A stretch of 64,000 nucleotides of DNA from a virus (taxonomy: Duplodnaviria > Caudoviricetes): IMG/VR virus record IMGVR_UViG_3300033068_001957, positions 96,189 through 160,188 of that record; one strand, 5' to 3'. The notes beneath the pieces are model-generated. The model worked only from the letters and a program-made list of their open reading frames with translations. It did no database searches and was not told the origin of the DNA. The first letter of the stretch is position 1. Every line of letters starts with the position of its first letter. The translations under genes were made by a program, and so were the position numbers. Below, piece after piece: positions 1 to 63,383 of the stretch.

Positions 1-954
1 CGTTTTGCTGCTCGGAAAGAACCGATCTACAACGTGTAGCTCGCGTCCATACCATTCGCATTTGTATTCTAGCATGGTGCGAAAGTCTCGCCAGCCTTGC
101 TCGCTGATACAGCGAGAGAGCTTGCGGTTCTTGACCATGTTTGACACCGCCAAGTCTTCCAACGCAATCGCTTGGTTTTCGCGAACGAGTTGGGTTGACA
201 GTTTGTGAAGGAAATCTTTGCGCACGTCTGCGATGTGCTGGTGAACACGGGCGACTTTCTTGCGAGCGCGTTCGCGGTTTTTAGAACCTTTTACTTTGCG
301 AGAATGTAAGCGTTGAAGGCGGGCTAGTTTTTTACGCAAGCGGCGAATGCGCTTGGGCTGCGAAAACTTGCGGCCATCGCTCAAAGTCGCAAAATGTTCA
401 ATGCCAACGTCGATACCGATTTTGTTTGAAGAAGGTGGGAGCTTGGCGACTTCTTCCTCACAAAGGAACGAAGCAAACCATTGGCCAGCAGCGTTTTGCG
501 ATACGGTAACGGAGTTTGGTGCTCCCGAGAGAGGGCGCGACCATTGAACTTTGATAGGCTCGCTCATTTTAGCGAGGAAAAGATTATCTTCTTTCAATCG
601 AAAAGCGTTATCCATAAACCGTGCAGAACCGCCGTTTTTACGAGCTTTAAACGATGGATAAGCGTTTTTCTTTTTAAAGAAATTATTAAACGCCATATCT
701 AGATTTCTCAATGACTGCTGCAAGCAAACGCTCGATACATCATTGAGCCACTGGCGTTCGGGAGAATCCTTAAGATCGGTCAAACCTCGCGACGTTGCGC
801 CATAAGTGACGCTTTTCTTATTCGTAACCCAAGCTTCGCGTTTTTGTGCGAGCGCCCAATTATATACAAATCTGCACGATCCTATCGTTTTACGCAAGAT
901 TTCCTCTTGACAAATTGTTGGATAGATGCGATACTTGTATGCGCGGTGCGTCAT
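1..954 (-). CDS. tnpB: IS200/IS605-family RNA-guided endonuclease TnpB (3' end runs off the window)
   Basis: Not in the ORF track. Manual translation from ATG at 954 gives MTHRAYKYRIYPTICQEEILRKTIGSCRFVYNWA...IGIDVGIEHFATLSDG...FLHKLSTQLVRENQAIALEDL...DRFFPSSKT (HTH_OrfB N-terminus, RuvC-I D, RuvC-II E). Confidence 0.95.
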   Translation of the reverse strand, partial: MTHRAYKYRIYPTICQEEILRKTIGSCRFVYNWALAQKREAWVTNKKSVTYGATSRGLTDLKDSPERQWLNDVSSVCLQQSLRNLDMAFNNFFKKKNAYPSFKARKNGGSARFMDNAFRLKEDNLFLAKMSEPIKVQWSRPLSGAPNSVTVSQNAAGQWFASFLCEEEVAKLPPSSNKIGIDVGIEHFATLSDGRKFSQPKRIRRLRKKLARLQRLHSRKVKGSKNRERARKKVARVHQHIADVRKDFLHKLSTQLVRENQAIALEDLAVSNMVKNRKLSRCISEQGWRDFRTMLEYKCEWYGRELHVVDRFFPSSKT

Positions 955-1049
955 TCACTAATAGTTACACTTAACTTTACAAACTTTCCTAAAACAATGC
1001 GAAAATTCATCCCCTTCCTAAAGAAAGGGGTCTTCTTTTCGTCAATTTT
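1..1049 (-). mobile_element. tnpB-only (IS1341-like) IS200/IS605 element, left part
   Basis: The left-end hairpin at ~999-1044 aligns with the left end of the element at 60119. The 5' flank on the minus strand is TTAT (1050-1053). There is no tnpA between the left end and tnpB. Confidence 0.85.
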
Positions 1050-1081
1050 ATAAAATTTCAGCAAAAGACTGGCAAAACCGC

Positions 1082-6662: not shown

Positions 6663-6705
6663 AGAATATTGCGTGTAATATAGGATATAACAATCCTTTA
6701 AATAT

Positions 6706-7742: not shown

Positions 7743-8381
7743 TTAACGGAGATATTTGTCAAATGCCATCCTAAGTTTCGGCGGAATCTGTTTGTAGGAT
7801 TTCTGTAAACTGTCTGGCGCGTGTTTGGCGATCTTTCGAATGCAGCAAGAAACAACGGGCCATTTTCCCGTCTCCCCCATATATAAATAAGAATAAAGAT
7901 AAGCCGACGACTGCCTTTGATACTCGGCCAAATCAATATACTTGGTCCAGCGGCGTTTAATTTCGCGAACTGTTTTGCGTTCGCAATCTAATTCGATGGC
8001 CAAAGCGGCGGCGATAGCAGCATGTTTTTTATAAATTCTTTGACCCGACAAATAAGAAAAAAACCTACTATGCCCATGACGGATTCTACCTTTGTACCAG
8101 ATTGATTTAGGATTGAGCCATTGACCCTTGAAGTGGGAAACTTCATGCAGAAGCGTTTGAAAACAAGATGTTAAAGATGAACCAATAGATACGGCCAAAA
8201 TTTTTCTGCAATCATCAAAATAGCCACCTGATCTACCACCACACGAATTAACCTGTTTCCCAGCGCCAACGAAAAATGTTACTCCATGTTGTTTGCATTT
8301 TTCATCCACTTCTAAAAAATAATTTCTTATTTCTTCGGGGAATTTCTTTAGAATTTTTCTTGCCTTTGATGATATTTTCAT
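7743..8381 (-). CDS. putative zinc metallopeptidase-like protein (HExxH)
   Basis: TLLHEVSH and downstream IELDCE; the ATG at 8381 overlaps the HNH stop codon (ATGA). Confidence 0.6.
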   Translation of the reverse strand: MKISSKARKILKKFPEEIRNYFLEVDEKCKQHGVTFFVGAGKQVNSCGGRSGGYFDDCRKILAVSIGSSLTSCFQTLLHEVSHFKGQWLNPKSIWYKGRIRHGHSRFFSYLSGQRIYKKHAAIAAALAIELDCERKTVREIKRRWTKYIDLAEYQRQSSAYLYSYLYMGETGKWPVVSCCIRKIAKHAPDSLQKSYKQIPPKLRMAFDKYLR

Positions 8382-9163
8382 ATATTTAATCCATAACCAA
8401 ACATGTCGCATCCATCCTTTGGCCGCGATTGATTCTCGCTGGCCCAGAGTGGTCTTAAATTTGAATAGTGAAAGCATCTTTCTTGTTCCTTCTCATCGAA
8501 AAGGTTAAAAGTATTGCATGGAATAATATGATCAATATGCCATCCATATTTTCCATAATTGTCCCAAGACATCCCTTCTGTAAATTGCTTTTCAATGTAA
8601 AGATAGAGAAAATCCAGACTGCATCCTGTTAAATTCATCGTTCTTTTTCGCTTTATAGCCTTTCTTTTCGCCAGAGAATAATGAATCACTTTAAGTAGTG
8701 ACTGATAAATATCCCTTTTCCCCCTGACTTTATCTTTGAATTCTTTTACTTCTTCTGAAAATAAATGCGAGCTTTTTGTTCTATAAATGTTTTTTATAGA
8801 AAATTCTCCAGACCGCTCCTTTAAACAAAAAATTCTTCCTCCAATACTAGCTAATTTTTGCCTACCAGACTTCATCTCATAAACGTATTTTCCTTCATTA
8901 TCATTGTATGGAATATTTAAGTGAATGAATATACTTTTATTTTTTAAACACTCGAACTCTTCTTTAGAGTTTATATCAACAAGAGTAAAAATTAATCGCT
9001 CCTTATCTTTTAAAAGGCAGAGTCTATCAATAACTATTTTGTGTTTTTTATCCATTCTCAAATGAGAGATAAGAGATGGATCAATAGAAAAACATTTAGA
9101 TATTTCTTTATTGGTTGCAGTGATGATTTGTTTCGTGATACAGTCGTATATTTCTTTAGCCAT
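8378..9163 (-). CDS. HNH homing endonuclease
   Basis: GMSWDNYG-WHIDHIIP...CFHYSNLRPLWASEN; GTGTAA motif at 9174-9179. Confidence 0.85.
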   Translation of the reverse strand: MAKEIYDCITKQIITATNKEISKCFSIDPSLISHLRMDKKHKIVIDRLCLLKDKERLIFTLVDINSKEEFECLKNKSIFIHLNIPYNDNEGKYVYEMKSGRQKLASIGGRIFCLKERSGEFSIKNIYRTKSSHLFSEEVKEFKDKVRGKRDIYQSLLKVIHYSLAKRKAIKRKRTMNLTGCSLDFLYLYIEKQFTEGMSWDNYGKYGWHIDHIIPCNTFNLFDEKEQERCFHYSNLRPLWASENQSRPKDGCDMFGYGLNI

Positions 9164-9313
9164 ATACATGAAATTACACATTTTCTTAGTCGAAAAGATA
9201 ATTTTTTAAACAAACCTTTCATGCTTTAAATTACAGGAAAACTTTGATTTCTTGCTGGCAAAAGATTATTTTTTTTCTTGACAGGGTGAAAAAGACCGCC
9301 TATAGTTAAAAAC

Positions 9314-36492: not shown

Positions 36493-37200
36493 TCATTTTA
36501 ATGGTTTTCTTCTTGAGCCTAATTCTTCGTTCATTCTATTTAATGTTTTTATATGTTTCCAACCTTTATGAGAAGCGACTTTTTTAGAGCACACTTTCGT
36601 CATCATTTGAAGAGATAAATTGTTTTCTCTGCAAAATGCCCTCATATTAATTATTATAATTTCTTCCCCATCTGGAGAAATCATCAAATATTTTTTTGAG
36701 CTTTTTTGGCTAGCAGCTCTAACTGTATTTTCATGTGGTTTTTTACCCTTATTTATTATTGATAATTTTTCTCTAGTTTCTTGCGACGGCTTAAAGCCTT
36801 TGTGAGATAAAGAAGATTTTTTCCTTGTCTCTTTGGAGATTATTTTACCTTTATTACTTTTTGAAATTTTATCTTTGGTTTCCTGCGCCATTTTAGCATA
36901 TTTGCGACCGCCTAATTTTAAATTATATCCATTTGGAGATAAAGAGTTATAAAATAATCCCCAATAAACTTCTTTTCGATTTGCCTCTTCTAAAGAATCT
37001 GCGTAATCAATCTCAAATATTTGAAAGCTCTCTTTCCCATATTTGGCGATAGCCTCTGTTATAGCCTGTCTTTTTGCTTGCAAAGTGCATGTCCAACAAT
37101 GTCGTTGCCACCTCTTTTTTAAAGATACTATTGTTTGTCCAATATACTTTTTGTTATTGATTTTGTTTGTTACTAGATAAATGATGAATAGATGAGTCAT
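36493..37200 (-). CDS. GIY-YIG homing endonuclease with NUMOD3 repeats
   Basis: IIYLVTNKINNKKYIGQT...PNGYNL; ETKDKISKS/ETREKLS repeats; GTGTAA at 37210-37215. Confidence 0.9.
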   Translation of the reverse strand: MTHLFIIYLVTNKINNKKYIGQTIVSLKKRWQRHCWTCTLQAKRQAITEAIAKYGKESFQIFEIDYADSLEEANRKEVYWGLFYNSLSPNGYNLKLGGRKYAKMAQETKDKISKSNKGKIISKETRKKSSLSHKGFKPSQETREKLSIINKGKKPHENTVRAASQKSSKKYLMISPDGEEIIIINMRAFCRENNLSLQMMTKVCSKKVASHKGWKHIKTLNRMNEELGSRRKPLK

Positions 37201-37678
37201 TATTATTTATTACACTTAATCTCTCCAAGTATAATAACTCATCTCTAATCTTCATCAGAAGCTTTCCGAGATTATTTTCTCCGACACCAGTACGAATATC
37301 TTTTCCATAAAAACGATCATTCCAATTATTCCATTCTACAATTTCCTCATTGCCTGTAGCCAAAAGCTTTGCGGCCCAAGAAGTTCCTTTGGCGAATTTA
37401 ATCCTCAGAATATATTCCATCACAGCCAACTTATCAGACTCCCAATCCTCGCGCCAAAGGTATTTTTTCCTGTCTCGAATAGCTGTTTTAGCTTTATAGG
37501 GATTCATGGCGGCGATTTCAGTCCGCAAATCTATTCTATCCTTTGGCAGTTTCATTGCCTGATAGAAATTTTCAGATGTCCTGTATAGAATACCCTGATA
37601 TTCATAAGGCTCATCCATGGGCAACATATTGGAGAACCAGTTTTTGATTCGCCCTTTTTCGTCGTAGGTAATATTCAT
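37154..37678 (-). CDS. NADAR (YbiA-like) family hydrolase
   Basis: WFSN...YRTSENFYQAMK...KF...LLATG-EEIVE...GENNLGKLLMKIR. Confidence 0.9.
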   Translation of the reverse strand: MNITYDEKGRIKNWFSNMLPMDEPYEYQGILYRTSENFYQAMKLPKDRIDLRTEIAAMNPYKAKTAIRDRKKYLWREDWESDKLAVMEYILRIKFAKGTSWAAKLLATGNEEIVEWNNWNDRFYGKDIRTGVGENNLGKLLMKIRDELLYLERLSVINNNDSSIHHLSSNKQNQ

Positions 37679-45244: not shown

Positions 45245-45285
45245 TTGGTAATCGTGTAATCTACCTTAAGGAATACGTTTGTCAA

Positions 45286-46173
45286 ATGATTTTTATAAAA
45301 AGCCAAAATTGTCCCATTTTTCTTAATCTTTTGGCCGAAAATACCGCGCCAAATACGGGAAGTCATTTTTTTGCGGCGAAAACGGTTTCTTTTTCTACCG
45401 ACGCCCAATTAGAGGCGTCGAAAACCTTTGGTTCTCCTCGGGTATCCAATGATTACGGCATTGCTGGAGCACAACAGGGGAAGTTGAGTTTCGAGGCGTA
45501 TTTATTGATTGGCGACAATTCTTTCTTGGACGCAAATAATCAGATGGCGCTGATTACTGGCATGACTGGAGATTTTGTTTCGGGTCACCAGTGCAGGCTT
45601 GGCAATTTCCTCTTGAAACAATGTTATCTTTCTAGTTTAAGCTTGCAGATTTCGCCGCAAGAACCTGCAACCGTGAAGGCTGGGTTCGATTGCTTTGATT
45701 TATCCAGCATAACGGGCCAAACTTTTACGGGCGCGAATATTCAGAATTTCCTGACAACAAACGGGTCTGGCGCTTATTTGGATTCAATTCATGCATTAGC
45801 AATGGGCGTTTCTGGGTCGGGAACATCTCTGCCGCAAAGCAAGTTGGAGATTAACATCAACTATTCATGCACGCGAGAGGCTGTTTACGGATTGGGCGCG
45901 AGTGTTCCATCGACGGTTATACTCACTAATCTCACTAGAGAAACTTCGATCAAAGGAGAATCCGTGGGGGAGATAATTACACATTCGGGCAACAATGCTG
46001 CGCTGAATTTGTCGTTTTCTCCGTTTAGTTCTTTTATTGCGGATAATAATTTTGCCGCGCAGAGTGGATTGTTTGATATTAATATCAATGGTAAGGTGAC
46101 ATCTCAGGCGATGGAAGTTAATCCAGATAACGGTGTCGGTGGGGTCGTAGTTATTCAAGAGTCCTTATATTAG
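45286..46173 (+). CDS. putative virion structural protein (tail tube/hub-like)
   Basis: Beta-rich S/T/G composition, two similar halves, GTGTAA late motif at 45254. Confidence 0.5.
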   Translation: MIFIKSQNCPIFLNLLAENTAPNTGSHFFAAKTVSFSTDAQLEASKTFGSPRVSNDYGIAGAQQGKLSFEAYLLIGDNSFLDANNQMALITGMTGDFVSGHQCRLGNFLLKQCYLSSLSLQISPQEPATVKAGFDCFDLSSITGQTFTGANIQNFLTTNGSGAYLDSIHALAMGVSGSGTSLPQSKLEININYSCTREAVYGLGASVPSTVILTNLTRETSIKGESVGEIITHSGNNAALNLSFSPFSSFIADNNFAAQSGLFDININGKVTSQAMEVNPDNGVGGVVVIQESLY

Positions 46174-47677: not shown

Positions 47678-47712
47678 TTGTAACAAGTGTAATTAGCTTG
47701 TTATTATTAATT

Positions 47713-48000
47713 ATGGCTAAATACTGTCCTAACTGTGGAACGCCCTCGGCTTCCGCCACCTCCAAGTTTTGTGGTTCTTGCGGACATCCGCTGGACGCCA
47801 TGACTAAACCAGCAAAAGCATCTAAAGCTTCTGTCGAAGATGACCCCGATGGCAGCGATATTACAGAACTACCAGATATTACTGCTTTATCCGTAGTCGC
47901 GGCGATGGATGAAACAGAAGACCGTTTCGGCAAAACCTTTTCTTTTGGTGGCGCGGGTTTTGGGCCGTCTAAATTTAAACCACGCAGTCTATCATTCTAA
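47713..48000 (+). CDS. zinc-ribbon protein
   Basis: YCPNCG...KFCGSCG. Confidence 0.8.
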   Translation: MAKYCPNCGTPSASATSKFCGSCGHPLDAMTKPAKASKASVEDDPDGSDITELPDITALSVVAAMDETEDRFGKTFSFGGAGFGPSKFKPRSLSF

Positions 48001-48683
48001 TGTTGACCTACGAAGAATGCAGCGATTCAATCGAAAAAGAAATTGCCAAGCGGCGCGGTAAATGGACTCTTACCATTCTTCGATGGATGGATTTCGAAGA
48101 TGTAGCTCAAATTCTTCGCGCCCATATCTTTAAGAAGTGGCACCTTTGGGACCAAGAAAGAAAGCTCGCCCCATGGATTCAGCGCATCATGAGCAGGCAG
48201 ATTTACAACCTCTTGCGTAATAACTATACAAATTACGCCCGCCCGTGCATTCAATGCAAGTTTTCGATGGGCGAAGAAGGGTGCGAAAAAACCCCAAGCC
48301 GTGAACAGTGCGCGGAATGCCCCTTATACAAGAAATGGACAGAGAACAAACAGGCAGGCTATCATATCAAAATGCCCTTGGAGCTTGAGAATCACACTCA
48401 GGAAGTCTTCAACAAAATCGACGACACAATCAATTTCAAGGAAACAATGCGCCGCGTTTCTGAGGAGTTGGAAAAGCGTATGAGTAAAAAGAGATTCGCC
48501 GCCTTCAATATCTTGTTTATAGACGGAACCTCAGACGAAGAAGCCATTAAAATCTTAAACATAAAAGAAAACACAAAAAACAAATACGGTCAGAAAAAAC
48601 TACTCACGGCCTTTAAGGACAGCCTCCAAAAAGAGGCCAAGGAAATAATCAAAAACAGCGACATCGCAGAATTTTGGCCCTAA
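48000..48683 (+). CDS. phage RNA polymerase sigma factor (sigma70/ECF-like) with Cys-rich insertion
   Basis: Region 2-like DFEDVAQ...KKWHLWD...LAPWIQRI...NLLR; region 4-like C-terminal HTH. Confidence 0.7.
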   Translation: MLTYEECSDSIEKEIAKRRGKWTLTILRWMDFEDVAQILRAHIFKKWHLWDQERKLAPWIQRIMSRQIYNLLRNNYTNYARPCIQCKFSMGEEGCEKTPSREQCAECPLYKKWTENKQAGYHIKMPLELENHTQEVFNKIDDTINFKETMRRVSEELEKRMSKKRFAAFNILFIDGTSDEEAIKILNIKENTKNKYGQKKLLTAFKDSLQKEAKEIIKNSDIAEFWP

Positions 48684-51435: not shown

Positions 51436-53280
51436 ATGAGCTGGATTAATGGCGCACAACCCCCCCTTCCAAAGGAAGACGTAAATGGCAGACTGGCTAA
51501 GGCTGATGGTTATCTAGAGGAGAAAGATGCTAAGCTTTGGTTGTACGATTTCTTTAAGGAAAACACTCAGTTTGCCGTGGACGTTTTGATGGGAGTGGAG
51601 CTGTTTCCATTCCAATCTATGATGGTAAAAACGATGATGAAAAGCGATTATTTTCTAGGCATACTAGGGCGCGGATCATCGAAAACTTTTTCCAGCGGTA
51701 TTTTCTTAGCTTTATATGCTGCATTAAATCAGGGCGTCCATATTGGAGTGCTCAGCGCTTCTTTTCGTCAAAGCAAGGGGATAATGAAAAAGATTCTAGA
51801 TATTCGTAAGTCACCTAAAGCCAGATTGCTAGATCAGTGTATAACCAAGGTGTCCCTGCAAAATGATGAGTGGAATATTGAGTTAGGTCAAAGTAAGATA
51901 ACGGCTCTACCGCTTGGACAAGGCGAAAAACTTCGCGGCTTTCGCTTCCAAGTGATGGTAATGGACGAACTTCTTTTGATGCCCGCAAAAATTGTGAACG
52001 AAGTAATTTTGCCCTTCCTCGCTGTAGTTACCAATCCTACGGAGAGGAAAAAGGTTTATGATGCTGAAACCAATTTAATTAGTCAAGGCAAGATGTTAGA
52101 ATCGGAAAGAAAAGTTTGGCCAAGCAATAAGATTATTGGCCTATCTTCTGCATCTTACCAGTTTGAGCATCTTTATACGATGTATAAAAACTATGAGAAG
52201 CTAATTCTTTCTGGAGAAAGCAAGAACGCACATTATAGTATTTTTCATATGTCTTACGATGCTGTTCCAGACGCCCTATATGATCCATCTCTACTTGAAA
52301 AAGCCAAAGAGGAAATGTCAGAAGCGCAGATGGACCGCGAGTTTCGAAGTACGTTCACTTCTGATTCATCTGGATTCTTCAAAATATCGAAAATGTTAGC
52401 TTGTACTTTTGCAGATGGAGAAGGTCAATCAGTTGAACTATTTGGCAATAAGACAGATGAATATATCTGCTCCATAGATTCTAGTTGGTCGGAGAGCGAT
52501 TCTTCCGACTACTTCGCAATGCACGTCTTAAAGATCGACAAGGAAGGCGAGTCTGCTATTTGTGTCCATCCTTATGCTATTGCTGGTGGCGCTCCAAAGG
52601 ATCATATTGCTTACTTTTATTATCTCTTGACTAATTTTAATATTCAATTTATTACAATGGACTTTATGGGCGGCGCTCAATTTCTTTCTTCATGTAATGA
52701 AAGCGAATTATTCAAATCCGCAAAAATAGAAATCAAAACAATCGACGTAGAGGTCGAAAATCCAGAGGAATACCAGCAAAACATCCAAGAAATCCGCCAA
52801 CAGTATAACTTGAGTGGCAAAAAGATTTGTTTCTTGAGAAAGCCTTCTACAGGATGGATTCGTTCTGCAAATGAATTGCTACAAAGATCATTTGATACGA
52901 AGGATATTATGTTCGCGGGTGGCGCAATGGATTCTGAATTTGTCAGACAAACATCTAACCCTGAAAAAGTTAGTGGATTAAAATTTCTTAGAGAAGAAAA
53001 GGGCGAAACGCATACTGTGGTTGATTTTGTCGAAAATCTTAAAGATTTAATGACTCTTACTAGAACTCAATGCGCAATGATTGAGGTTTCATCAACGCCT
53101 ACTGGACACCAGAGTTTTGATTTGCCAAAAAATTTAAAACAACAGAGGGGCGCGAATCGCGCTAGAAAAGATTTATATTCCGCGTTAGTTCTTGCCAACT
53201 GGGGAAGAAAAATCTTCTACGATATGAAAAAGATGCCCGTAGAAGAGATTCAATCGACATTTACTCCATTTTTTGCGTAG
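51436..53280 (+). CDS. terL: terminase large subunit
   Basis: LFPFQ Q-motif, Walker A GRGSSKT, LRGFR..VMDE Walker B, C-terminal RNase H-like (SIDSS..SD, RKDLYSA). Confidence 0.9.
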   Translation: MSWINGAQPPLPKEDVNGRLAKADGYLEEKDAKLWLYDFFKENTQFAVDVLMGVELFPFQSMMVKTMMKSDYFLGILGRGSSKTFSSGIFLALYAALNQGVHIGVLSASFRQSKGIMKKILDIRKSPKARLLDQCITKVSLQNDEWNIELGQSKITALPLGQGEKLRGFRFQVMVMDELLLMPAKIVNEVILPFLAVVTNPTERKKVYDAETNLISQGKMLESERKVWPSNKIIGLSSASYQFEHLYTMYKNYEKLILSGESKNAHYSIFHMSYDAVPDALYDPSLLEKAKEEMSEAQMDREFRSTFTSDSSGFFKISKMLACTFADGEGQSVELFGNKTDEYICSIDSSWSESDSSDYFAMHVLKIDKEGESAICVHPYAIAGGAPKDHIAYFYYLLTNFNIQFITMDFMGGAQFLSSCNESELFKSAKIEIKTIDVEVENPEEYQQNIQEIRQQYNLSGKKICFLRKPSTGWIRSANELLQRSFDTKDIMFAGGAMDSEFVRQTSNPEKVSGLKFLREEKGETHTVVDFVENLKDLMTLTRTQCAMIEVSSTPTGHQSFDLPKNLKQQRGANRARKDLYSALVLANWGRKIFYDMKKMPVEEIQSTFTPFFA

Positions 53281-53317
53281 CATCCGTTTTTTAGAGATTT
53301 TCTGGGTAGTATATTTC

Positions 53318-53995
53318 ATGATTGAAATCTCTACGCGGCTGGAAATGCCTAAATCTTCTGGTATTTATAAAATGACTAACAAGGCGAATGGAAAAGTTTA
53401 TATCGGCAAAAGTGTCGATATGCACCAACGATTTATTGATTACGTAGGAGATATCAGAAAGGGTAAAAAGCGTTTCATTCTCGATGCAATTCGTAAATAC
53501 GGCTGGGATGGGTTTAAGCTGGAAATCATAGAAATTTACCCAACCAGAGTCGATAACAATTATCTTTTAGACAGGGAGGCGTTTTGGATTAAAATTTATC
53601 GCGCAACGCAACGTGGAATTGGATATAATCTTTGCGAATATAGCCGTGATAGGGGCGGGATTCCTTTGTCTGAGGAGCACAAAAGAAGAATCGGCAGTTC
53701 TAATAAGAAAATTAAAAGAATCATTAATCCAGAGGCGCGAAAGAAATTGGTGGATGGTCTTCGCAAGGTGTGTAAAACCAGAGAGTTTAAGCTGAATATG
53801 GTTAATAAGAAAAGGTTCAAAACAATTTTGCATCAAATTGATCCAGTCACGCTAGAGAGGGTAAAAACTTGGGATTTACTAAGCGAAGCCGCCGATAGTT
53901 TAAAAATGTCCCTTCAAGGACTTTTATATTATACCGAAACTGGTAAAGTTCACAAGGGATTCCTGTGGGAAAGAGAGAAAGTCAACAATTTCTGA
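53318..53995 (+). CDS. GIY-YIG homing endonuclease (NUMOD3/NUMOD1)
   Basis: SGIYKMTNKANGKVYIGKS...GYNL...LSEEHKRRIG. Confidence 0.9.
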   Translation: MIEISTRLEMPKSSGIYKMTNKANGKVYIGKSVDMHQRFIDYVGDIRKGKKRFILDAIRKYGWDGFKLEIIEIYPTRVDNNYLLDREAFWIKIYRATQRGIGYNLCEYSRDRGGIPLSEEHKRRIGSSNKKIKRIINPEARKKLVDGLRKVCKTREFKLNMVNKKRFKTILHQIDPVTLERVKTWDLLSEAADSLKMSLQGLLYYTETGKVHKGFLWEREKVNNF

Positions 53996-54023
53996 CTTTT
54001 AGACTTATTGTGTAATCAATTAT

Positions 54024-56063
54024 ATGCCCCGCCCCTACGTAAAGAAAAAACAGGAATATTGGAACCAGTTCGAGCAGGTTAATGCAGCACTTCCCAATGT
54101 AGCAGTTCAATCTTGGAAGCCAGAAACGGCGGGCGATCCATTTTACATGTCCTCATCTAGTCTCCTAGCCCATACGGCCAAAGCTTCCATTGGAGCGCGT
54201 CTAAGCCAGACTACAACCGATTCTACAGGCCAGCGAGTAAATGCCGCCGCACTTATTGGCAACCCCGAGAGATTTGCCTGTATCCGCCAAGGACTTTTGC
54301 CTTATAGATACTCGAAAGATTGTGTAGATATTCGTGATGCTATTCACCTTTGCCAGCTTGCACATGCTAACGTGGCAGTTTTCCGCAACGCCATCTCACT
54401 CATGGCTGAAATGGCCAACTCTCCCATCTATTTCGATGGCGGCACAAAAAAATCCCGCGATTTCTTCGCCGCATGGACTAAGAAAGTTAAAATCGGCAAG
54501 GTGGCGGAACAATTTTTCTTGGAATTTTATCGTTCGAGTAATGTGTTTGTTTATCGTATCGAAGCGCCATTTGAGGCGGAAGATTTTATCAAACTAACTC
54601 AGGTTTACGGTTCGGACGGAGAAGTTGCGGGGTCAAATAAGATTCCAGTGTCCTATATCTTTCTCAACCCTTATGATATTGTGTCCAGAGCAGCAACAGC
54701 TTTTTCGAGCGGCCAATATGAAAAAGTTCTTTCACGCTTTGAACTAGAGCGTTTGAAGAATCCTCAGACAGATGAAGACCGCCAAATACTCGCAAATCTT
54801 CCTCAAGAAGCTCAGGATGCAATTAAGAATAAAGCATGGGTAACTGATGGCGTGAGAGTAAAGTTGGATGCGAAGATGCTAATTACTAGCTTCCTCTCAA
54901 AAATGGCATACGAACCCTTCGCCGTTCCATTTGGTTATCCAGTATTAGACGACATCAACGCCAAGCTCGAACTCAAGAAAATGGATCAAGCAATTCTACG
55001 CACGGTAGAAAATGCCATCCTTCTTATTACAATGGGTGCAAAGCCAGATGAAGGTGGTATCAACCCTGCTAATCTTACGGCCATGCAAAACCTTTTTAAA
55101 AATGAAAGTGTTGGCCGCGTATTGGTTTCCGATTGGACTACAAAAGCTGAATTCATCATTCCAGACCTTAAGAAAGTTCTCGGCCCCGAAAAATACGAAA
55201 TCCTCAACCAAGACATCCAAGAAGGTCTCCAAAATGTTCTAGTCGGCGAGGAAAAGTATGGCAACACACAAACTAAGGTAAAAATCTTCCTTGAGAAATT
55301 AAATGTGGCGCGAAATGCTTTCTTGAATGATTTGCTCCAACCAGAAGTCCAGCGCATTGCCAAATCTCTCGGAATGCGTAAATTTCCCACGGCGAAATTC
55401 AAAACAATCAGCGCCGACGATCAAACTCAAACGTGGAGAGTTATCACGCGCATGATGGAATTAGGAATTCTAACTCCAGAACAAACTTTAACAGCTATTC
55501 GCACGGGCGAATTCACTAATCCAGAGAGCGAAGAATTTATGTCTTCTCAGCAACAGTATGTTTCAGAGCGCAAGAAAGGAATGTGGAATCCGCTATCTCC
55601 TGTTCCGACTATGCCACAGGCCGCTCCTCCAATGGACCCTAATGTTAAATACCAAGTAGATAACGCTCCCGCTCCTGCCACGCCAACAAAATCTGGTGGT
55701 GCAAAAAAGAAATCAAAACCAATGAAATCATCGGGTCGTCCAAGTGGTTCAAAGGCCAGTCTTTCTACTATTCAGGAAACCATTTATGCCACCGAAGAAT
55801 TGTTATCTCATATTCGCGGCGAAATAAAATCTCTTCATAGTCTTGAATCTCTTTCAGAGCAACAAGAACAGATTTCTCAACAGTTAATGCAATCAGTCGT
55901 TTGCGCGGCAGAAAAAAATAACTGGCACAAATTAGCAACTGCTTGTGTGAATGATAATTCTAAAATGTTGGATTTAAATGTTCGGCCCGAAGTTCTAGAT
56001 TTGGCGGTGGAATTTGAATTGCCAGATTATGATGCGGCTATTTTGTTTGAGTCCCAGAATTAA
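54024..56063 (+). CDS. portal protein
   Basis: 679 aa after terL; VFRNAISLMAE, EFYRSSNVF, YEPFAVPF portal-like segments; GTGTAA at 54010. Confidence 0.75.
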   Translation: MPRPYVKKKQEYWNQFEQVNAALPNVAVQSWKPETAGDPFYMSSSSLLAHTAKASIGARLSQTTTDSTGQRVNAAALIGNPERFACIRQGLLPYRYSKDCVDIRDAIHLCQLAHANVAVFRNAISLMAEMANSPIYFDGGTKKSRDFFAAWTKKVKIGKVAEQFFLEFYRSSNVFVYRIEAPFEAEDFIKLTQVYGSDGEVAGSNKIPVSYIFLNPYDIVSRAATAFSSGQYEKVLSRFELERLKNPQTDEDRQILANLPQEAQDAIKNKAWVTDGVRVKLDAKMLITSFLSKMAYEPFAVPFGYPVLDDINAKLELKKMDQAILRTVENAILLITMGAKPDEGGINPANLTAMQNLFKNESVGRVLVSDWTTKAEFIIPDLKKVLGPEKYEILNQDIQEGLQNVLVGEEKYGNTQTKVKIFLEKLNVARNAFLNDLLQPEVQRIAKSLGMRKFPTAKFKTISADDQTQTWRVITRMMELGILTPEQTLTAIRTGEFTNPESEEFMSSQQQYVSERKKGMWNPLSPVPTMPQAAPPMDPNVKYQVDNAPAPATPTKSGGAKKKSKPMKSSGRPSGSKASLSTIQETIYATEELLSHIRGEIKSLHSLESLSEQQEQISQQLMQSVVCAAEKNNWHKLATACVNDNSKMLDLNVRPEVLDLAVEFELPDYDAAILFESQN

Positions 56064-58999: not shown

Positions 59000-60118
59000 A
59001 TCAATCTATAATCTCGCACTGGTTCATGAACAAGCAAGCACTATTTTCTCCATTCAGCGTTTCAACGTGGAAAACTGTTTGGTTGGATTTGGGCGTCACG
59101 GTCACTTCTACGATTTTTGCAATGGTTCCGTCGCAGCATTTGACGAGTTTGTTGATTAGGGGATTGTTCATATTTTATGCCCTCACATAGACCCCCAGTT
59201 TTCCATTATTATTGGATGCTTCGATTGTGAATTTGTTTTTGCCGCCCTGTTTTAGAATAATGGCTTCGTCCATTAGCGCCTCCAAGTAACTTTTGGCGGT
59301 GACGTGTTTGGAGATTCGATTGGTGGTTAGGGTGTAGGGTTTCATAATTATTGAAGAGTTAAATTTGTGGCGGTTTCAAGAAGGTCGATTAGCCCACTTA
59401 CGGTATTGTCTGCCGAATATGGGCTATGAGGGTCAAACGATTCGAGAAGTTTTTCCACCTGCTCCTTGATATAAATTTGTTCTGGCGTCATAAAGACAAT
59501 CTACCAGAGGCTGCAAAAGATGTCAAGAACTTTTTGGCCTTTTTCTCATGGGCTGCGTAAGGGCACGCTCAATTGTCCAGCCACGAATGATTCTTTTTCT
59601 TATTTCGTTTGCGCTTATTTTTGTTTCATTTTCCCATTCTGCAACGGATAAGGTTCTTCCATTGAAGGATATTTCTTTAATCGCAGCATGAGTTTTCTTC
59701 ACTAAGGGTTCTTTAAATATCTTTTCGTCGGGCCAATTTTTATGGAATCGGCTTCTTACATTTTTCCAGCTTATTTTATATTTTTCGCATAAAACTTCTA
59801 CTGGCAGCGTTTCGCCATCGACGGTAAACTCTTTTGGGCAAAAGTTTACTCTCGCCCTCATTTCTCTAGTAAGCGCTTCTTCTACAGACAAGCCGTATTT
59901 AAATATACGGCACCTAAGAGCGCCCGCAGAAACATTCAGGAAATCAGCCCATTCTGACACGGTTCTTGTTTCTCCATTATATTCAATGCGAACATTTTTG
60001 GTGGTGTTATTACCCTGTTCCTTCATTGTTGCCCATCTACAATTCGATGGCTCATAGTTTCCGTCGTTATTAATCCTATCTAAAGAGTGCTTAGCGGATG
60101 GTCTTGGCCCCATATCAT

Positions 60119-61422
60119 TAGATCGACGAAAAGGAAACCCCTTCCTTTAGGTAGGGGAGGAATTTTCGCCTCCGAGTTGGGAAAGTTAAGCGTTGCATAC
60201 GTGTAACGTTATTATAACGTAAGCAATGCACAAAGTCAAGCGCAGATTTCGCTTTTATCCGTCAAAAGCTCAACAAGTTGAGCTTTCTAAGGTATTCGGA
60301 TGCACACGTTTTGTCTATAACGCTGCTCTCGCTTGGCGCAAGGCGGAGTTCGAGGCTGGACACAAGCCATCGTATAACAAAAGCTCTGCGTGGCTCACAT
60401 CTTTCAAACGCGAGCATGAATTTCTGAACGACGTTAGCTGCGTGCCATTGCAGCAGAGCTTGCGCTATTTGCAAGGCGCTTACCAACGCTTTTTCAAGCG
60501 TCAATCAGGCTTTCCAACGTTCAAGGCTCGCGATAACCGCCAGTCTTGCGAGTTCACAGAGCGGGCGTTTACCTATAAAAATAGCAAGCTTTCGCTTGCG
60601 AAGATTGGCGTCGTTGACGTTGTTTGGACGCTTGCGCTTCAATCAAAACCTACGACTGTTACTGTTATCAAAGAAGCAAGCGGCAAATACTTCGTGACGC
60701 TAACGCTGCTCGAAGCTGGCAACCAATTGCCAGCGTCAACCGCAAGCGTTGGCATTGACTTGGGCATTGAAACTTTCGCTACTCTTAGTGATGGCCGCAA
60801 GTTTAAAGCGCCCGCAAAGATTCGTAAGTTACGCAAAAAGCTCGCCGCCTTGCAGCGCAAACATTCGCGCCGAGTTAAGGGCTCCAAGCGTCGCGAGAAG
60901 GCTCGCGTCAAAGTCGCACGTCTGCACGAACACATCGCCAACGTGCGCAATGATTTTCTCCAAAAACTCTCAACTTCCATCGCTCGCGAGAACCAAACGA
61001 TTGCGCTGGAAGATTTGCATACGAAAGGCATGATGCGAAATCGCAAGTTAGCCCGCGCCATTGGCGAGCAAGGCTGGCGGCAATTCCGCGACATGCTCGC
61101 TTACAAATGCGAATGGGGTAATCGTCAACTGGAAATCGTGAGCCGCTGGCTTCCGAGTTCCAAGACGTGCTCTTGTTGCGGAGAAAAAACGATGCTGACG
61201 TTAAAAGACCGTTCTTGGAGTTGCGCTTGCGGCGCAACACATGATCGTGACGTTAACGCTGCGAAAAACATTTTGGCCGCTGGACTAGCGGCTTCTGCCC
61301 GTCGAGGCTCTGTAAGACCTGCGAGAACTTACGTTCTCAAGGCTAGGCCAGTGAAGCGGGAACCGCTTAGTTGCTAACGCAATTAGGAATCCCCGTCTCT
61401 TTTAGGGCGGGGAGGATGTCAA
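60119..61422 (+). mobile_element. complete tnpB-only IS200/IS605 element
   Basis: Left-end hairpin ~60125-60168; right-end hairpin CCCCGTC/GGCGGGG ending GATGTCAA; no target duplication; 5' flank TCAT. Confidence 0.9.
60226..61377 (+). CDS. tnpB: RNA-guided endonuclease TnpB
   Basis: FRFYP..FGCTRFVYN, GIDLG, ALEDL, SSKTCSCCG, HDRDVNAAKNI; D-E-D triad intact. Confidence 0.97.
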   Translation: MHKVKRRFRFYPSKAQQVELSKVFGCTRFVYNAALAWRKAEFEAGHKPSYNKSSAWLTSFKREHEFLNDVSCVPLQQSLRYLQGAYQRFFKRQSGFPTFKARDNRQSCEFTERAFTYKNSKLSLAKIGVVDVVWTLALQSKPTTVTVIKEASGKYFVTLTLLEAGNQLPASTASVGIDLGIETFATLSDGRKFKAPAKIRKLRKKLAALQRKHSRRVKGSKRREKARVKVARLHEHIANVRNDFLQKLSTSIARENQTIALEDLHTKGMMRNRKLARAIGEQGWRQFRDMLAYKCEWGNRQLEIVSRWLPSSKTCSCCGEKTMLTLKDRSWSCACGATHDRDVNAAKNILAAGLAASARRGSVRPARTYVLKARPVKREPLSC

Positions 61423-61826
61423 TGTAAAAATTGGCGAAAGATTCTAGCCACGACTTGCAAACGGTTATTCCCCGCCTGGAGTAAGATTCGTCTCTTTTAT
61501 TCTTTGAATTGCCAGAGCAACGCCTTTTCATATGGCACCAAACGTTATATTCTGGAATATCGTTGCTACTTTGGCCAGTTAAGTTGATACATGTGTTTCT
61601 ATAGCACCCGCATGATTTTGAAAGTCCTCGAAGAATTGGCCTGATAGCGCATAGTTTTTTCGTGCCGCATTTACACAGGCATTCGTAAAGATACGATTCA
61701 TTTTTAACTTCGTTTGTTTTTCTTAAAATTGTCCAATTGTTAACGGTAATAGGGAGTTCCATATGCTGCTGGAAACGAATCTATTTCGGAAATCTTTCAA
61801 AGAATGTGTAATTATTTTTATCGCGC

Positions 61827-63383
61827 ATGGATAAAATTTTCCCCTACACCTCTGTTTTTGAATCAGATGTCTCTTATGGAGGGCTATTTTCAGAAAGTCC
61901 ATTTTATTCCAAAGCAAGTCTGGAGGGACTCCGACCCCTAATTCCAAATTGGGAAGCTAATACGGAGCAAAATATTGATCTTCTGGCCTTTGCCGCGAAT
62001 GCCTGTTGTGCGGGTATCGCCAACAAAAATGATGATCTATATGAACCAGACGCAGCGATAGAAACTCTTTCTCTGTGGCGGCAAAAAATGATTAATGATA
62101 ACCATGATAGAAAAAAGATCATCGGCCACTTATTGACTTCTAGCCTTAGCTCGGAAAATGATTCTATTATTATTTCGCCGCAAGATGCCATTGCTTCGAG
62201 ACAGCCCTTTAATGTAAGTGTCGGTGGCGTTGTCTATAGACTAGCAGATAAGGAATTGGCGAACGATCTTGAACAATCGTCCGATCCAGAAAGTCCTTCT
62301 TATAAGAGCATCTCCCTATCGTTCGAGTTGGGATTCCCCGAATTTGGAATTGCTCTTGGAAGCGAAAACTTTTTTGAGGCAGAAATTGTTAGAAATCAAA
62401 GGCAAGTAGATGAGCTAAAGAAAAACCTTCGAATCTACGGCGGTAGCGGAAAGACAAAAGATGGTCAAGACATTTACCGCTTAATTGGGAAAAATCATTT
62501 ACCACTGGCTGTAGCGCTCACCAAACGACCAGCTGCAAGAATGAAGTATGGAGCAATTACAAATGAAACTCCACGCATCACTTCTACAGCAAATACAACA
62601 ATTTCTTTATTTGCCGAAAATATTTCAGATAAAACCAAAACCCCGCGTGTAACAACTTACAATAAACCTACTATGGACAAGCTCGAACAAATTCTAGAAG
62701 AAATCAAAGCCTCAATGCTCGCTGGCAAAATTAAGGAAGAAGCGGCTGCTTCCCTAACTAAAGAGTTTGCCGACAAAATTCAAGCTTTTAGTAAAGAACA
62801 CGCTACTCAGTTGGCCGAAAAAGAAGCCGCAAAAGCTTCCGCCGAAAAAGAAGCCGCCGAACTTAAGCTCTCTGTTGCCAATCAAGCCAAGGAACTCGCC
62901 GACACCAAAGCTGCCCTCGAAAAGATTCAGGCCCAAGCTACTGAAAAAGAAGCCGCCGAACTCTTTTCCGCCCGCATGGATGAATTTAACAACGAATTTG
63001 AACTCGACGACGAAGATCGCGCCGCTCTTGCTGGTGAAATCAAAAATCTCGATGCTACTCCAGAATCTTTCGCCGCTTTCAAGAAAAAGATGGGAAAACT
63101 TATGGATTCCAAGATGAAAACCTCTAAAGAGGCAAAAGACAAAGAAGCCAAGGCCGCTCTTGATATTGCTGTTGCCGCCAAGCTTACCGAACTCGCCAAA
63201 GCTTCCAGCAAAAACAAGCTTTCTGACAAGGAACTCGCCGAAAAACTTCTCGAACAAGTTCAGGCCAAAGCCTCCACACAAACTCCCCTTCCTAATGGCA
63301 GCGAAAACACCAGCACCACCCAAACGCTGAAAGAAAAATTCGCCGCTGCCTTCGATAAGAAAAATATCACTGTCACCCTCTAA
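61827..63383 (+). CDS. prohead protease-scaffold fusion
   Basis: N-terminal ANKNDD, NDNHDR..IIGH, SLSFE (herpes/HK97-like protease pattern); C-terminal A/K/E-rich coiled coil; GTGTAA at 61806. Confidence 0.7.
   Translation: MDKIFPYTSVFESDVSYGGLFSESPFYSKASLEGLRPLIPNWEANTEQNIDLLAFAANACCAGIANKNDDLYEPDAAIETLSLWRQKMINDNHDRKKIIGHLLTSSLSSENDSIIISPQDAIASRQPFNVSVGGVVYRLADKELANDLEQSSDPESPSYKSISLSFELGFPEFGIALGSENFFEAEIVRNQRQVDELKKNLRIYGGSGKTKDGQDIYRLIGKNHLPLAVALTKRPAARMKYGAITNETPRITSTANTTISLFAENISDKTKTPRVTTYNKPTMDKLEQILEEIKASMLAGKIKEEAAASLTKEFADKIQAFSKEHATQLAEKEAAKASAEKEAAELKLSVANQAKELADTKAALEKIQAQATEKEAAELFSARMDEFNNEFELDDEDRAALAGEIKNLDATPESFAAFKKKMGKLMDSKMKTSKEAKDKEAKAALDIAVAAKLTELAKASSKNKLSDKELAEKLLEQVQAKASTQTPLPNGSENTSTTQTLKEKFAAAFDKKNITVTL

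Follow-up and report, generated by a model that had tools for sequence, protein, structure and literature searches.

What do genes for TnpB, the RNA-guided nuclease of IS200/IS605-type insertion sequences (IS), do in the genome of a phage, and from which signal are they read? TnpB, from which Cas12 descends, is regarded as a homing nuclease whose activity retains the transposon at its site. The window analyzed here, a stretch of 64,000 nucleotides, corresponds to bases 96189-160188 of one 160,188-bp virus record (IMGVR_UViG_3300033068_001957; 40% G+C), a phage genome that CheckV rates complete and that encodes a terminase, a tape measure protein, tail proteins, and many homing-endonuclease-like genes. 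It carries three tnpB elements, IS_A and IS_B in the window and IS_C outside it, each with the hexamer GTGTAA shortly before the tnpB start codon. The observations reported below are the statistics of this motif, its conservation, its distribution between phages and chromosomes, the element ends, related genomes in which the insertion sites are empty, and the layout of IS_C with its recoded target-gene end (rescue tail). The first three give good support to a phage-adapted IS lineage that is predicted to be coupled to non-early transcription by the phage itself, and the sequences suggest a transposon lineage adapted to life, and probably also to self-copying, inside phage genomes.

Three tnpB elements with a common upstream hexamer

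Pfam analysis of the IS_A and IS_B TnpB proteins reports matches with HTH_OrfB_IS605, OrfB_IS605, and Cas12f1-like_TNB (E = 1e-9 to 1e-31). The two proteins are 53% identical, and the RuvC D-E-D triad (D178, E262, and D342 in IS_B numbering) is invariant in all three TnpBs. A sequence-only reading of the window had placed GTGTAA 10 nt before the ATG of the first tnpB gene (965-970, minus strand) and 19 nt before that of the second (60201), in both cases between the left-end hairpin and the start codon; hexamers and hairpins were all located there. The elements comprise the following features.

1-954, minus strand: tnpB of IS_A, first 318 codons; the gene, for 395 residues, extends 233 nt beyond the left window edge
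965-970, minus strand: GTGTAA(C) of IS_A, 10 nt upstream of the ATG at 954; column conserved in all A/C-type copies
1000-1041, minus strand: left-end imperfect hairpin of IS_A (DNA fold z = -4.1); outer IS boundary at ~1043-1050
60121-61424, plus strand: IS_B, a TnpB-only IS200/IS605-type element of ~1.3 kb, with boundaries taken from the uninterrupted allele in the related genome G002
60127-60168, plus strand: left-end imperfect hairpin of IS_B, which aligns with the IS_A left end
60190-60229, plus strand: hairpin over the IS_B motif and start, the 5' arm overlapping the motif and the 3' arm holding the AUG (RNA fold -16.2 kcal/mol, z = -3.3)
60201-60206, plus strand: GTGTAA(C) of IS_B, 19 nt upstream of the ATG at 60226, in a 17-nt insertion relative to IS_A
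60211-60239, minus strand: antisense sigma70-like promoter TTGACT-17-TATAAT (11/12) across the start of the IS_B tnpB, directed out of the left end
60226-61377, plus strand: tnpB of IS_B, 383 residues (Pfam)
61391-61422, plus strand: right-end hairpin of IS_B with terminal TCAA (ATGTCAA at 61416-61422), the 3' part of the presumed omega-RNA scaffold
61423-61444, plus strand: IS_B flank, presumed template of the omega-RNA guide, assigned from position only, by analogy with characterized TnpB systems
59523-60120, minus strand: C-terminal part of the HNH homing-endonuclease gene split by IS_B (PHROG HNH endonuclease, E = 1e-42)
61425-61762, minus strand: N-terminal part of the same HNH gene, which is a continuous reading frame in G002
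72742-73908 of the genome, outside the window: tnpB of IS_C, with the motif 10 nt before its GTG start
72594-74038 of the genome (L179:2595-4039): IS_C cassette, made up of the recoded tail, the motif, tnpB, the right end, and the old tail

The B-type relative L083 has the motif 20 nt before its start, and its start region folds into a similar hairpin of different sequence, which makes two such sequences in all. On read-through transcripts the IS_B hairpin would mask the AUG; transcripts that start 3' of the motif would lack the 5' arm of the hairpin and leave the AUG exposed. The antisense promoter at 60211-60239 faces the C-terminal HNH fragment, an arrangement found likewise in L083. With IS_B inside the HNH gene, one selfish nuclease gene is disrupted by another, the G002 (L168) copy of the gene being intact.

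Position and conservation of GTGTAA

Genes were called genome-wide with our own greedy open reading frame (ORF) caller, which returned 273. The sequence-only reading had made background frequency a check on the motif, and the outcome is split: the total in the window is within chance (20 copies versus 17 +/- 4 in shuffles), whereas placement near starts is strongly enriched, with 25 of the 58 genome-wide copies lying 0-40 nt upstream of a same-strand called start against a background of 4% (P=4e-20). With Y at the seventh position (GTGTAAY), 24 of 36 copies are start-proximal. One-letter variants of GTGTAA, tested genome-wide, display no such enrichment, and when all 4096 hexamers are ranked by start proximity with no prior choice, GTGTAA comes first. 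It is again the top-ranked hexamer in the relative G001 (165 kb; DNA identity to this phage 66-72%), where 24/61 copies are start-proximal (P=2e-18). Among 97 reciprocal-best gene pairs between the two phages, the motif stands before both members in 18, on one side only in 4 and 2, and before neither in 73; hence 18 of the 22 motif-bearing genes with a G001 orthologue keep it, at nearly the same offset, at protein identities of 39-66%.

The genes so marked include those for the tape measure, tail, minor tail, portal-like (next to the terminase), and protease-like proteins and the large subunit of ribonucleotide reductase (RNR). Selfish genes are over-represented: 6 of the 13 homing-endonuclease-like genes and all three tnpB genes carry the motif (9/16), versus 18 of the 256 other genes (P=1.7e-6). 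These data support GTGTAAY as a genuine gene-start signal of the phage, of what would be a non-early class. The further sites named by the sequence-only reading (54010, 61806, 45254, 37210 and 9174, the last two on the minus strand) all exist, and with one more site and the gene served at 45254 they read as follows, the portal-like and protease-like assignments being feature-based leads only.

9174-9179, minus strand: GTGTAAT preceding an HNH/EndoVII-like gene (8378-9169)
37210-37215, minus strand: GTGTAAT 9 nt before a GIY-YIG homing-endonuclease gene (36493-37200)
45254-45259, plus strand: GTGTAAT 26 nt before gene 45286-46173 (product unknown); motif conserved before the G001 orthologue
45286-46173, plus strand: first gene of the plus-strand block with the sigma, terminase, and portal genes
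47687-47692, plus strand: GTGTAAT preceding a small gene directly upstream of the sigma-like gene
54010-54015, plus strand: GTGTAAT 8 nt before the portal-like gene (54024-56063); conserved in G001
61806-61811, plus strand: GTGTAAT 15 nt before a prohead-protease/YonD-like gene (61827-63383); conserved in G001 and G002

Another GTGTAAT, at 6673-6678 on the plus strand, is followed ~27 nt on by an ATG that opens no ORF of at least 45 codons; this site may belong to an RNA or to a gene of very small size. A GIY-YIG homing-endonuclease gene (53273-53995) that lies between the genes for the terminase and the portal-like protein overlaps the terminase stop, has no upstream motif, and appears to be a promoter-less cassette.

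Phage-borne and chromosomal tnpB copies

The first sample of relatives comprises 147 TnpB loci from species genomes and viral contigs, with the IS_A TnpB as the reference for identity. At identities of 53% and above there are 20 loci, every one of them on a viral contig, and GTGTAA precedes the start in all 20, by 9-11 nt in those of the A/C type and by 19-20 nt in those of the B type; the hexamer is absent from the 60 nt upstream of the remaining 127. Among the latter, each group displays signals characteristic of its host: TAnAAT, 5-7 nt from the ATG, in cyanobacterial chromosomal copies, TAnnTTTG in Bacteroidota, GGAGG-type sites in Bacillota, and TATA-like boxes in Methanosarcina. A search of 5.8 billion proteins returns ~100 clusters in the clade, many on contigs of 100-210 kb, and eleven further clade members were sampled from it. 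Four of these (63-76% identity) carry the motif, two (69-70%) have CGGTACA in exactly the motif column, one (67%) is a promoter-less cassette overlapping the gene upstream, and four (53-59%) have no motif, two of them being named records of metagenome-assembled genomes, one Planctomycetota and one Pseudanabaenaceae. Overall, the motif precedes 19/22 close phage-borne copies versus 0/~131 chromosomal or distant ones. This comparison, set beforehand as the refuting test, thus favors the phage-adapted lineage that the sequence-only reading had proposed.

The CGGTACA copies (L209:2440-2500 and L212:1440-1500, on contigs of 119 and 38 kb) may reflect a promoter swap to another phage group's signal. 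Genes flanking tnpB in several phage-type contigs also carry GTGTAAY; in the flanks of cyanobacterial tnpB genes it occurs only as expected by chance, 2 of 14 occurrences being near a start. On one contig, a LAGLIDADG-like homing-endonuclease gene (L206:2169-3010) has GTGTAAT 12 nt before its start, and the contig's own tnpB (58% identity), which has no promoter, directly abuts the upstream gene.

In a maximum-likelihood tree the motif-bearing TnpBs fall into two clades, each with strong support, one with 11 distinct rows and the other with 2. Together with the cyanobacterial chromosomal clade they form a three-way split in which the branching order is not settled, the support for a single origin being 76. 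One or two evolutionary gains of the motif are possible on this tree; since the IS_B motif lies in the 17-nt insertion relative to IS_A, the evidence leans towards a separate gain there.

Element ends, empty sites, and homing

At the right end, 13 copies are alike up to ...ATGTCAA and then diverge sharply and completely into 13 different flanks, hence 13 different insertion sites, and the right-end hairpin region displays compensatory base pairs among copies. At the left end, the hairpin is kept in 9/15 copies and lost in IS_C and about four others. The copies without it retain the motif, and IS_C, L092, and L094 retain an intact ORF and the right end too. A TTAN, which may be a target-adjacent motif, lies 4-9 nt outside the conserved left-end core in eight copies, and the junction of IS_B, compared with G002, would fit insertion next to such a motif without target duplication, the alleles being only about 80% identical. 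Two phage-borne copies, L096 and L097, look like decaying elements, with tnpB frames cut to 128 and 64 codons and GTGTAAT retained. A search of the 160-kb genome for a Y1 TnpA transposase (PF01797) returned no match, the controls having matched; judged from this gene content, the elements would be non-autonomous at best.

Both insertions with a syntenic counterpart are variable. IS_B is absent from its site in G002 and in G001, the latter being devoid of both the HNH gene and the element, and IS_C is absent from its site in G001 and G005, which have the plain gene. The target of IS_C is a glycosyltransferase-like gene that, in this phage, runs on into a recoded tail of 29 residues. The recoded and old tails are identical at 22/29 residues and 60/90 bases (alignment score 129 versus <=37 in shuffles). 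Of the first 20 bases past the right end of IS_C, which presumably template the guide, 18 agree with the G001 allele and 12 with the new tail that the element itself carries. This is the organization that one would expect of a cut-and-rescue element. Rescue-tail duplications were sought in 12 other copies with a locatable right end, and none was found. Taken together, the empty sites, the missing phage TnpA, the left-end loss, and the one recoded rescue tail are suggestive of homing. The sequence-only reading had combined two proposals, and they fare differently: the phage-adapted IS lineage with a phage-type signal is borne out by the distribution of the motif, and the homing-endonuclease role receives, from these sequence features, indirect support.

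The elements may instead be ordinary passengers of the IS200/IS605 type, moved in trans by a host TnpA, needing a promoter that the phage can use, and having no homing role. Most copies do keep canonical hairpins at both ends, on which a Y1 transposase could act, near-identical TnpBs occur at different sites (L089 and L093), as expected from transposition, and IS_B disrupted a gene without any rescue and has a guide region that matches the closest empty allele poorly. However, the phage genome has no TnpA, and about a third of the copies are devoid of the left-end hairpin yet have the putative promoter, the ORF, and the right end. Moreover, the recoded target tail of IS_C makes sense only if the old target is cut, and the ORFs and catalytic triad are conserved over a large clade on phage-sized contigs. 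We therefore regard the passenger explanation as unlikely, if still a serious competitor to homing.

Nature of the signal

Over 28 sites, GTGTAAY and an A/T-rich stretch immediately before it account for all of the information content, and a -35 partner, sought across the same sites, was not found. The distance from the motif to the start codon is modally 8-10 nt and ranges from 5 to 40 nt, with AAGGA-like ribosome sites often inside the longer spacers. A second class of upstream signal is sigma70-like (TTGACA-N16-18-TAnnnT, the -10 box often GTTAnTAT) and precedes at least 25 genes (in the window, for instance, at 2011, 5656, 6282, 9314, 19370, and 19837), among them those for a Lon-like protease, a polymerase fragment, an RNA ligase, and a methyltransferase, as well as many small ORFs in runs. 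The sigma70-like class serves non-structural genes, and no gene carries both signals. Since the -10 box of the sigma70-like class mostly ends 5-7 nt before the ATG, leaderless mRNAs are implied, apparently as the usual form for genes of the early type in this phage. If the GTGTAAY hexamer is taken as TAAYNN preceded by GTG, it too lies 5-7 nt from the ATG, with the same geometry; on this ground, about half of the mRNAs from GTGTAAY sites would probably be leaderless as well. It is plausible to call the GTGTAAY genes 'late', as judged only from which genes carry the motif. Literature searches returned no description of a GTGTAA(Y) promoter or of a tnpB gene driven by a phage promoter, and we infer that GTGTAAY is an undescribed promoter word of an uncultured phage group, with largely leaderless expression.

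A start-proximal signal need not be a promoter: GTGTAAY could be a regulator-binding site, an RNA-processing site, or a translation signal, in which case tnpB would share its regulation with the other motif genes and not a transcription start. The position of the motif 8-10 nt before many start codons, in the zone of ribosome-binding signals, would fit, as would the sigma70-type -10 box found 3' of the motif at 47687 and in IS_B. Such a role is nevertheless improbable, given that the spacing to the start varies from 5 to 40 nt, that Shine-Dalgarno-like AAGGA stands between motif and ATG in longer spacers, that the TAAYNN geometry is that of the sigma70-like -10 boxes in the same genome, and that the two classes never occur on one gene. 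To our knowledge, GTGTAAY also has no complementarity to the 16S 3' end, which counts against this role too.

That the motif has nothing to do with phage expression, being a chance match or a piece of the left end passed on by descent, is scarcely credible and largely refuted: GTGTAA is not over-represented overall, and the IS_A and IS_C motifs occupy one alignment column and therefore share descent, but the sister chromosomal clade is entirely devoid of the motif, the IS_B motif sits in a separate insertion, GTGTAA is invariant while its flanks vary across copies down to 63% protein identity, it ranks first among the hexamers upstream of unrelated genes in each of two genomes, and the chance of finding it <=30 nt upstream of all three tnpB genes is ~1.6e-7.

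A candidate sigma factor

The plus-strand block that opens with gene 45286-46173 encodes a protein that may bear on how the motif is read.

48000-48683, plus strand: Sigma-70-family-like protein (Pfam Sigma70_r2, E = 1e-5; TIGR02937, ECF superfamily, E = 5e-7, below cut-off)

From these matches the protein looks like a divergent relative of ECF-type sigma factors. It is a candidate for the reader of GTGTAAY, an assignment we make tentatively and hold to be more doubtful than probable.

Proposed explanation and its weight

We propose the following scheme. GTGTAAY would be a compact -10-type promoter element without a -35 partner, serving the non-early genes of this phage group. A TnpB-only IS200/IS605-type lineage would live in these phages, its nearest chromosomal relatives being cyanobacterial, and the phage TnpB copies would carry GTGTAAY where chromosomal copies have TATAAT just before the start codon. 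With the phage element in place of TATAAT, TnpB and its omega-RNA would follow the phage's schedule, the RNA-guided nuclease being made alongside free-standing homing endonucleases that have the same signal. The lineage would persist and spread as TnpB cuts the element-free alleles of co-infecting relatives and recombinational copying follows. The promoter function of the motif, the timing, the reading sigma, cleavage, and homing are the inferred parts of this scheme. With moderate confidence, we favor a phage-motif-driven, non-early, TnpB-only lineage without TnpA that persists most likely by homing. A more inclusive version, in which the phage-restricted TnpB is a TnpA-free RNA-guided homing element, phage-promoted and mostly leaderless, with IS_C as a natural cleave-and-rescue cassette and with sublineages that have swapped promoter words, is attractive, though on balance we would not expect all of it to hold.

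Several points weigh against the favored scheme. Three close relatives have no motif, and the phage-versus-chromosome contrast may reflect only one or two gains, so that the counts are not independent. IS_B has, in addition to GTGTAA, a TATTAT box 10 nt before its ATG and the strong antisense sigma70-like promoter, and its expression may not depend on GTGTAA alone. GTGTAAY also precedes the gene for the RNR large subunit, usually an early or middle gene, and the class called 'late' may therefore comprise middle as well as late genes. In the plus-strand block that contains the sigma-like gene, GTGTAA sites are the only upstream signals found, an awkward finding if no factor other than the 48000-48683 sigma reads them. 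A -35 element, normally required by ECF-like sigmas, does not accompany GTGTAAY. Between the guide region of IS_B and the closest empty allele available, that of G002, only 13/20 positions agree, which makes present-day cutting of G002 unlikely. Finally, the start codons rest on a simple ORF caller.

The homing view of TnpB rests on a few bacterial model elements. The lineage described here is natural and diversified, its ~100 protein clusters coming from contigs of phage size. Homing between co-infecting genomes would be the obvious way for it to spread, and it bears three signs of what may be adaptation: a phage-derived putative promoter, loss of the transposase-binding end, and, in one copy, a rescue copy of the target. 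The idea of RNA-guided homing becomes testable by phage cross.

Relatives, host, and RNA families

Searches of cultured phages returned no near relative of the 160-kb phage, and the identity of its terminase is at most 27%. The matches of a conserved 673-residue phage protein give no hint of the host. Cyanobacteria are suspected as hosts, the only basis being that the sister clade of the TnpBs is cyanobacterial. An Rfam scan matched one tRNA and no omega-RNA family.

Comparison with known systems

The elements resemble the IS200/IS605 OMEGA systems such as ISDra2 and those of the IS608 type (PMC8612924; bioRxiv 10.1101/2023.03.14.532601) in the three-domain TnpB with its intact RuvC triad, the imperfect hairpins near both ends, the right end in TCAA, and a guide that is presumably templated by the flank. 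The cutting of element-free alleles for retention is proposed in both cases, here from sequence alone. Unlike those models, the copies described here lie on phage genomes without TnpA and have a phage motif instead of a host -10 box; several are devoid of the left end, and one has a recoded target-gene tail.

The free-standing and intron-encoded homing endonuclease genes of T4-like phages (seg, mob, and I-TevI; PMC2988022) are likewise selfish nuclease genes with their own non-early phage promoter (here predicted), and their presence, too, varies among related phages at syntenic sites. The endonuclease-specific promoters of T4 are middle or late, never early (PMC2988022). On read-through transcripts of B-type elements, the start codon could be concealed in the hairpin, as in I-TevI (PMC2988022), a likeness that concerns two sequences only. 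In contrast to the T4-type enzymes, the target would be recognized by RNA and not by protein, and the nuclease family is unrelated. The promoter sequences are unrelated as well, T4 late promoters reading TATAAATA and the signal here GTGTAAY. T4 late promoters, which are read by gp55 (PMC2988020), nevertheless share with GTGTAAY the plan of a single short -10-region element, without -35, before virion genes; beyond the different sequence, the sigma-like protein here looks ECF-like and not gp55-like, and is only a candidate reader.

A parallel is found in A-1(L), a phage of cyanobacteria that also carries a tnpB gene (bioRxiv 10.64898/2026.02.14.705889). That gene is induced during infection and is identical to host chromosomal copies, and therefore represents a recent pick-up (bioRxiv 10.64898/2026.02.14.705889). 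The lineage described here, in contrast, appears to be an old, diversified, and phage-restricted clade with what we predict to be a phage promoter.

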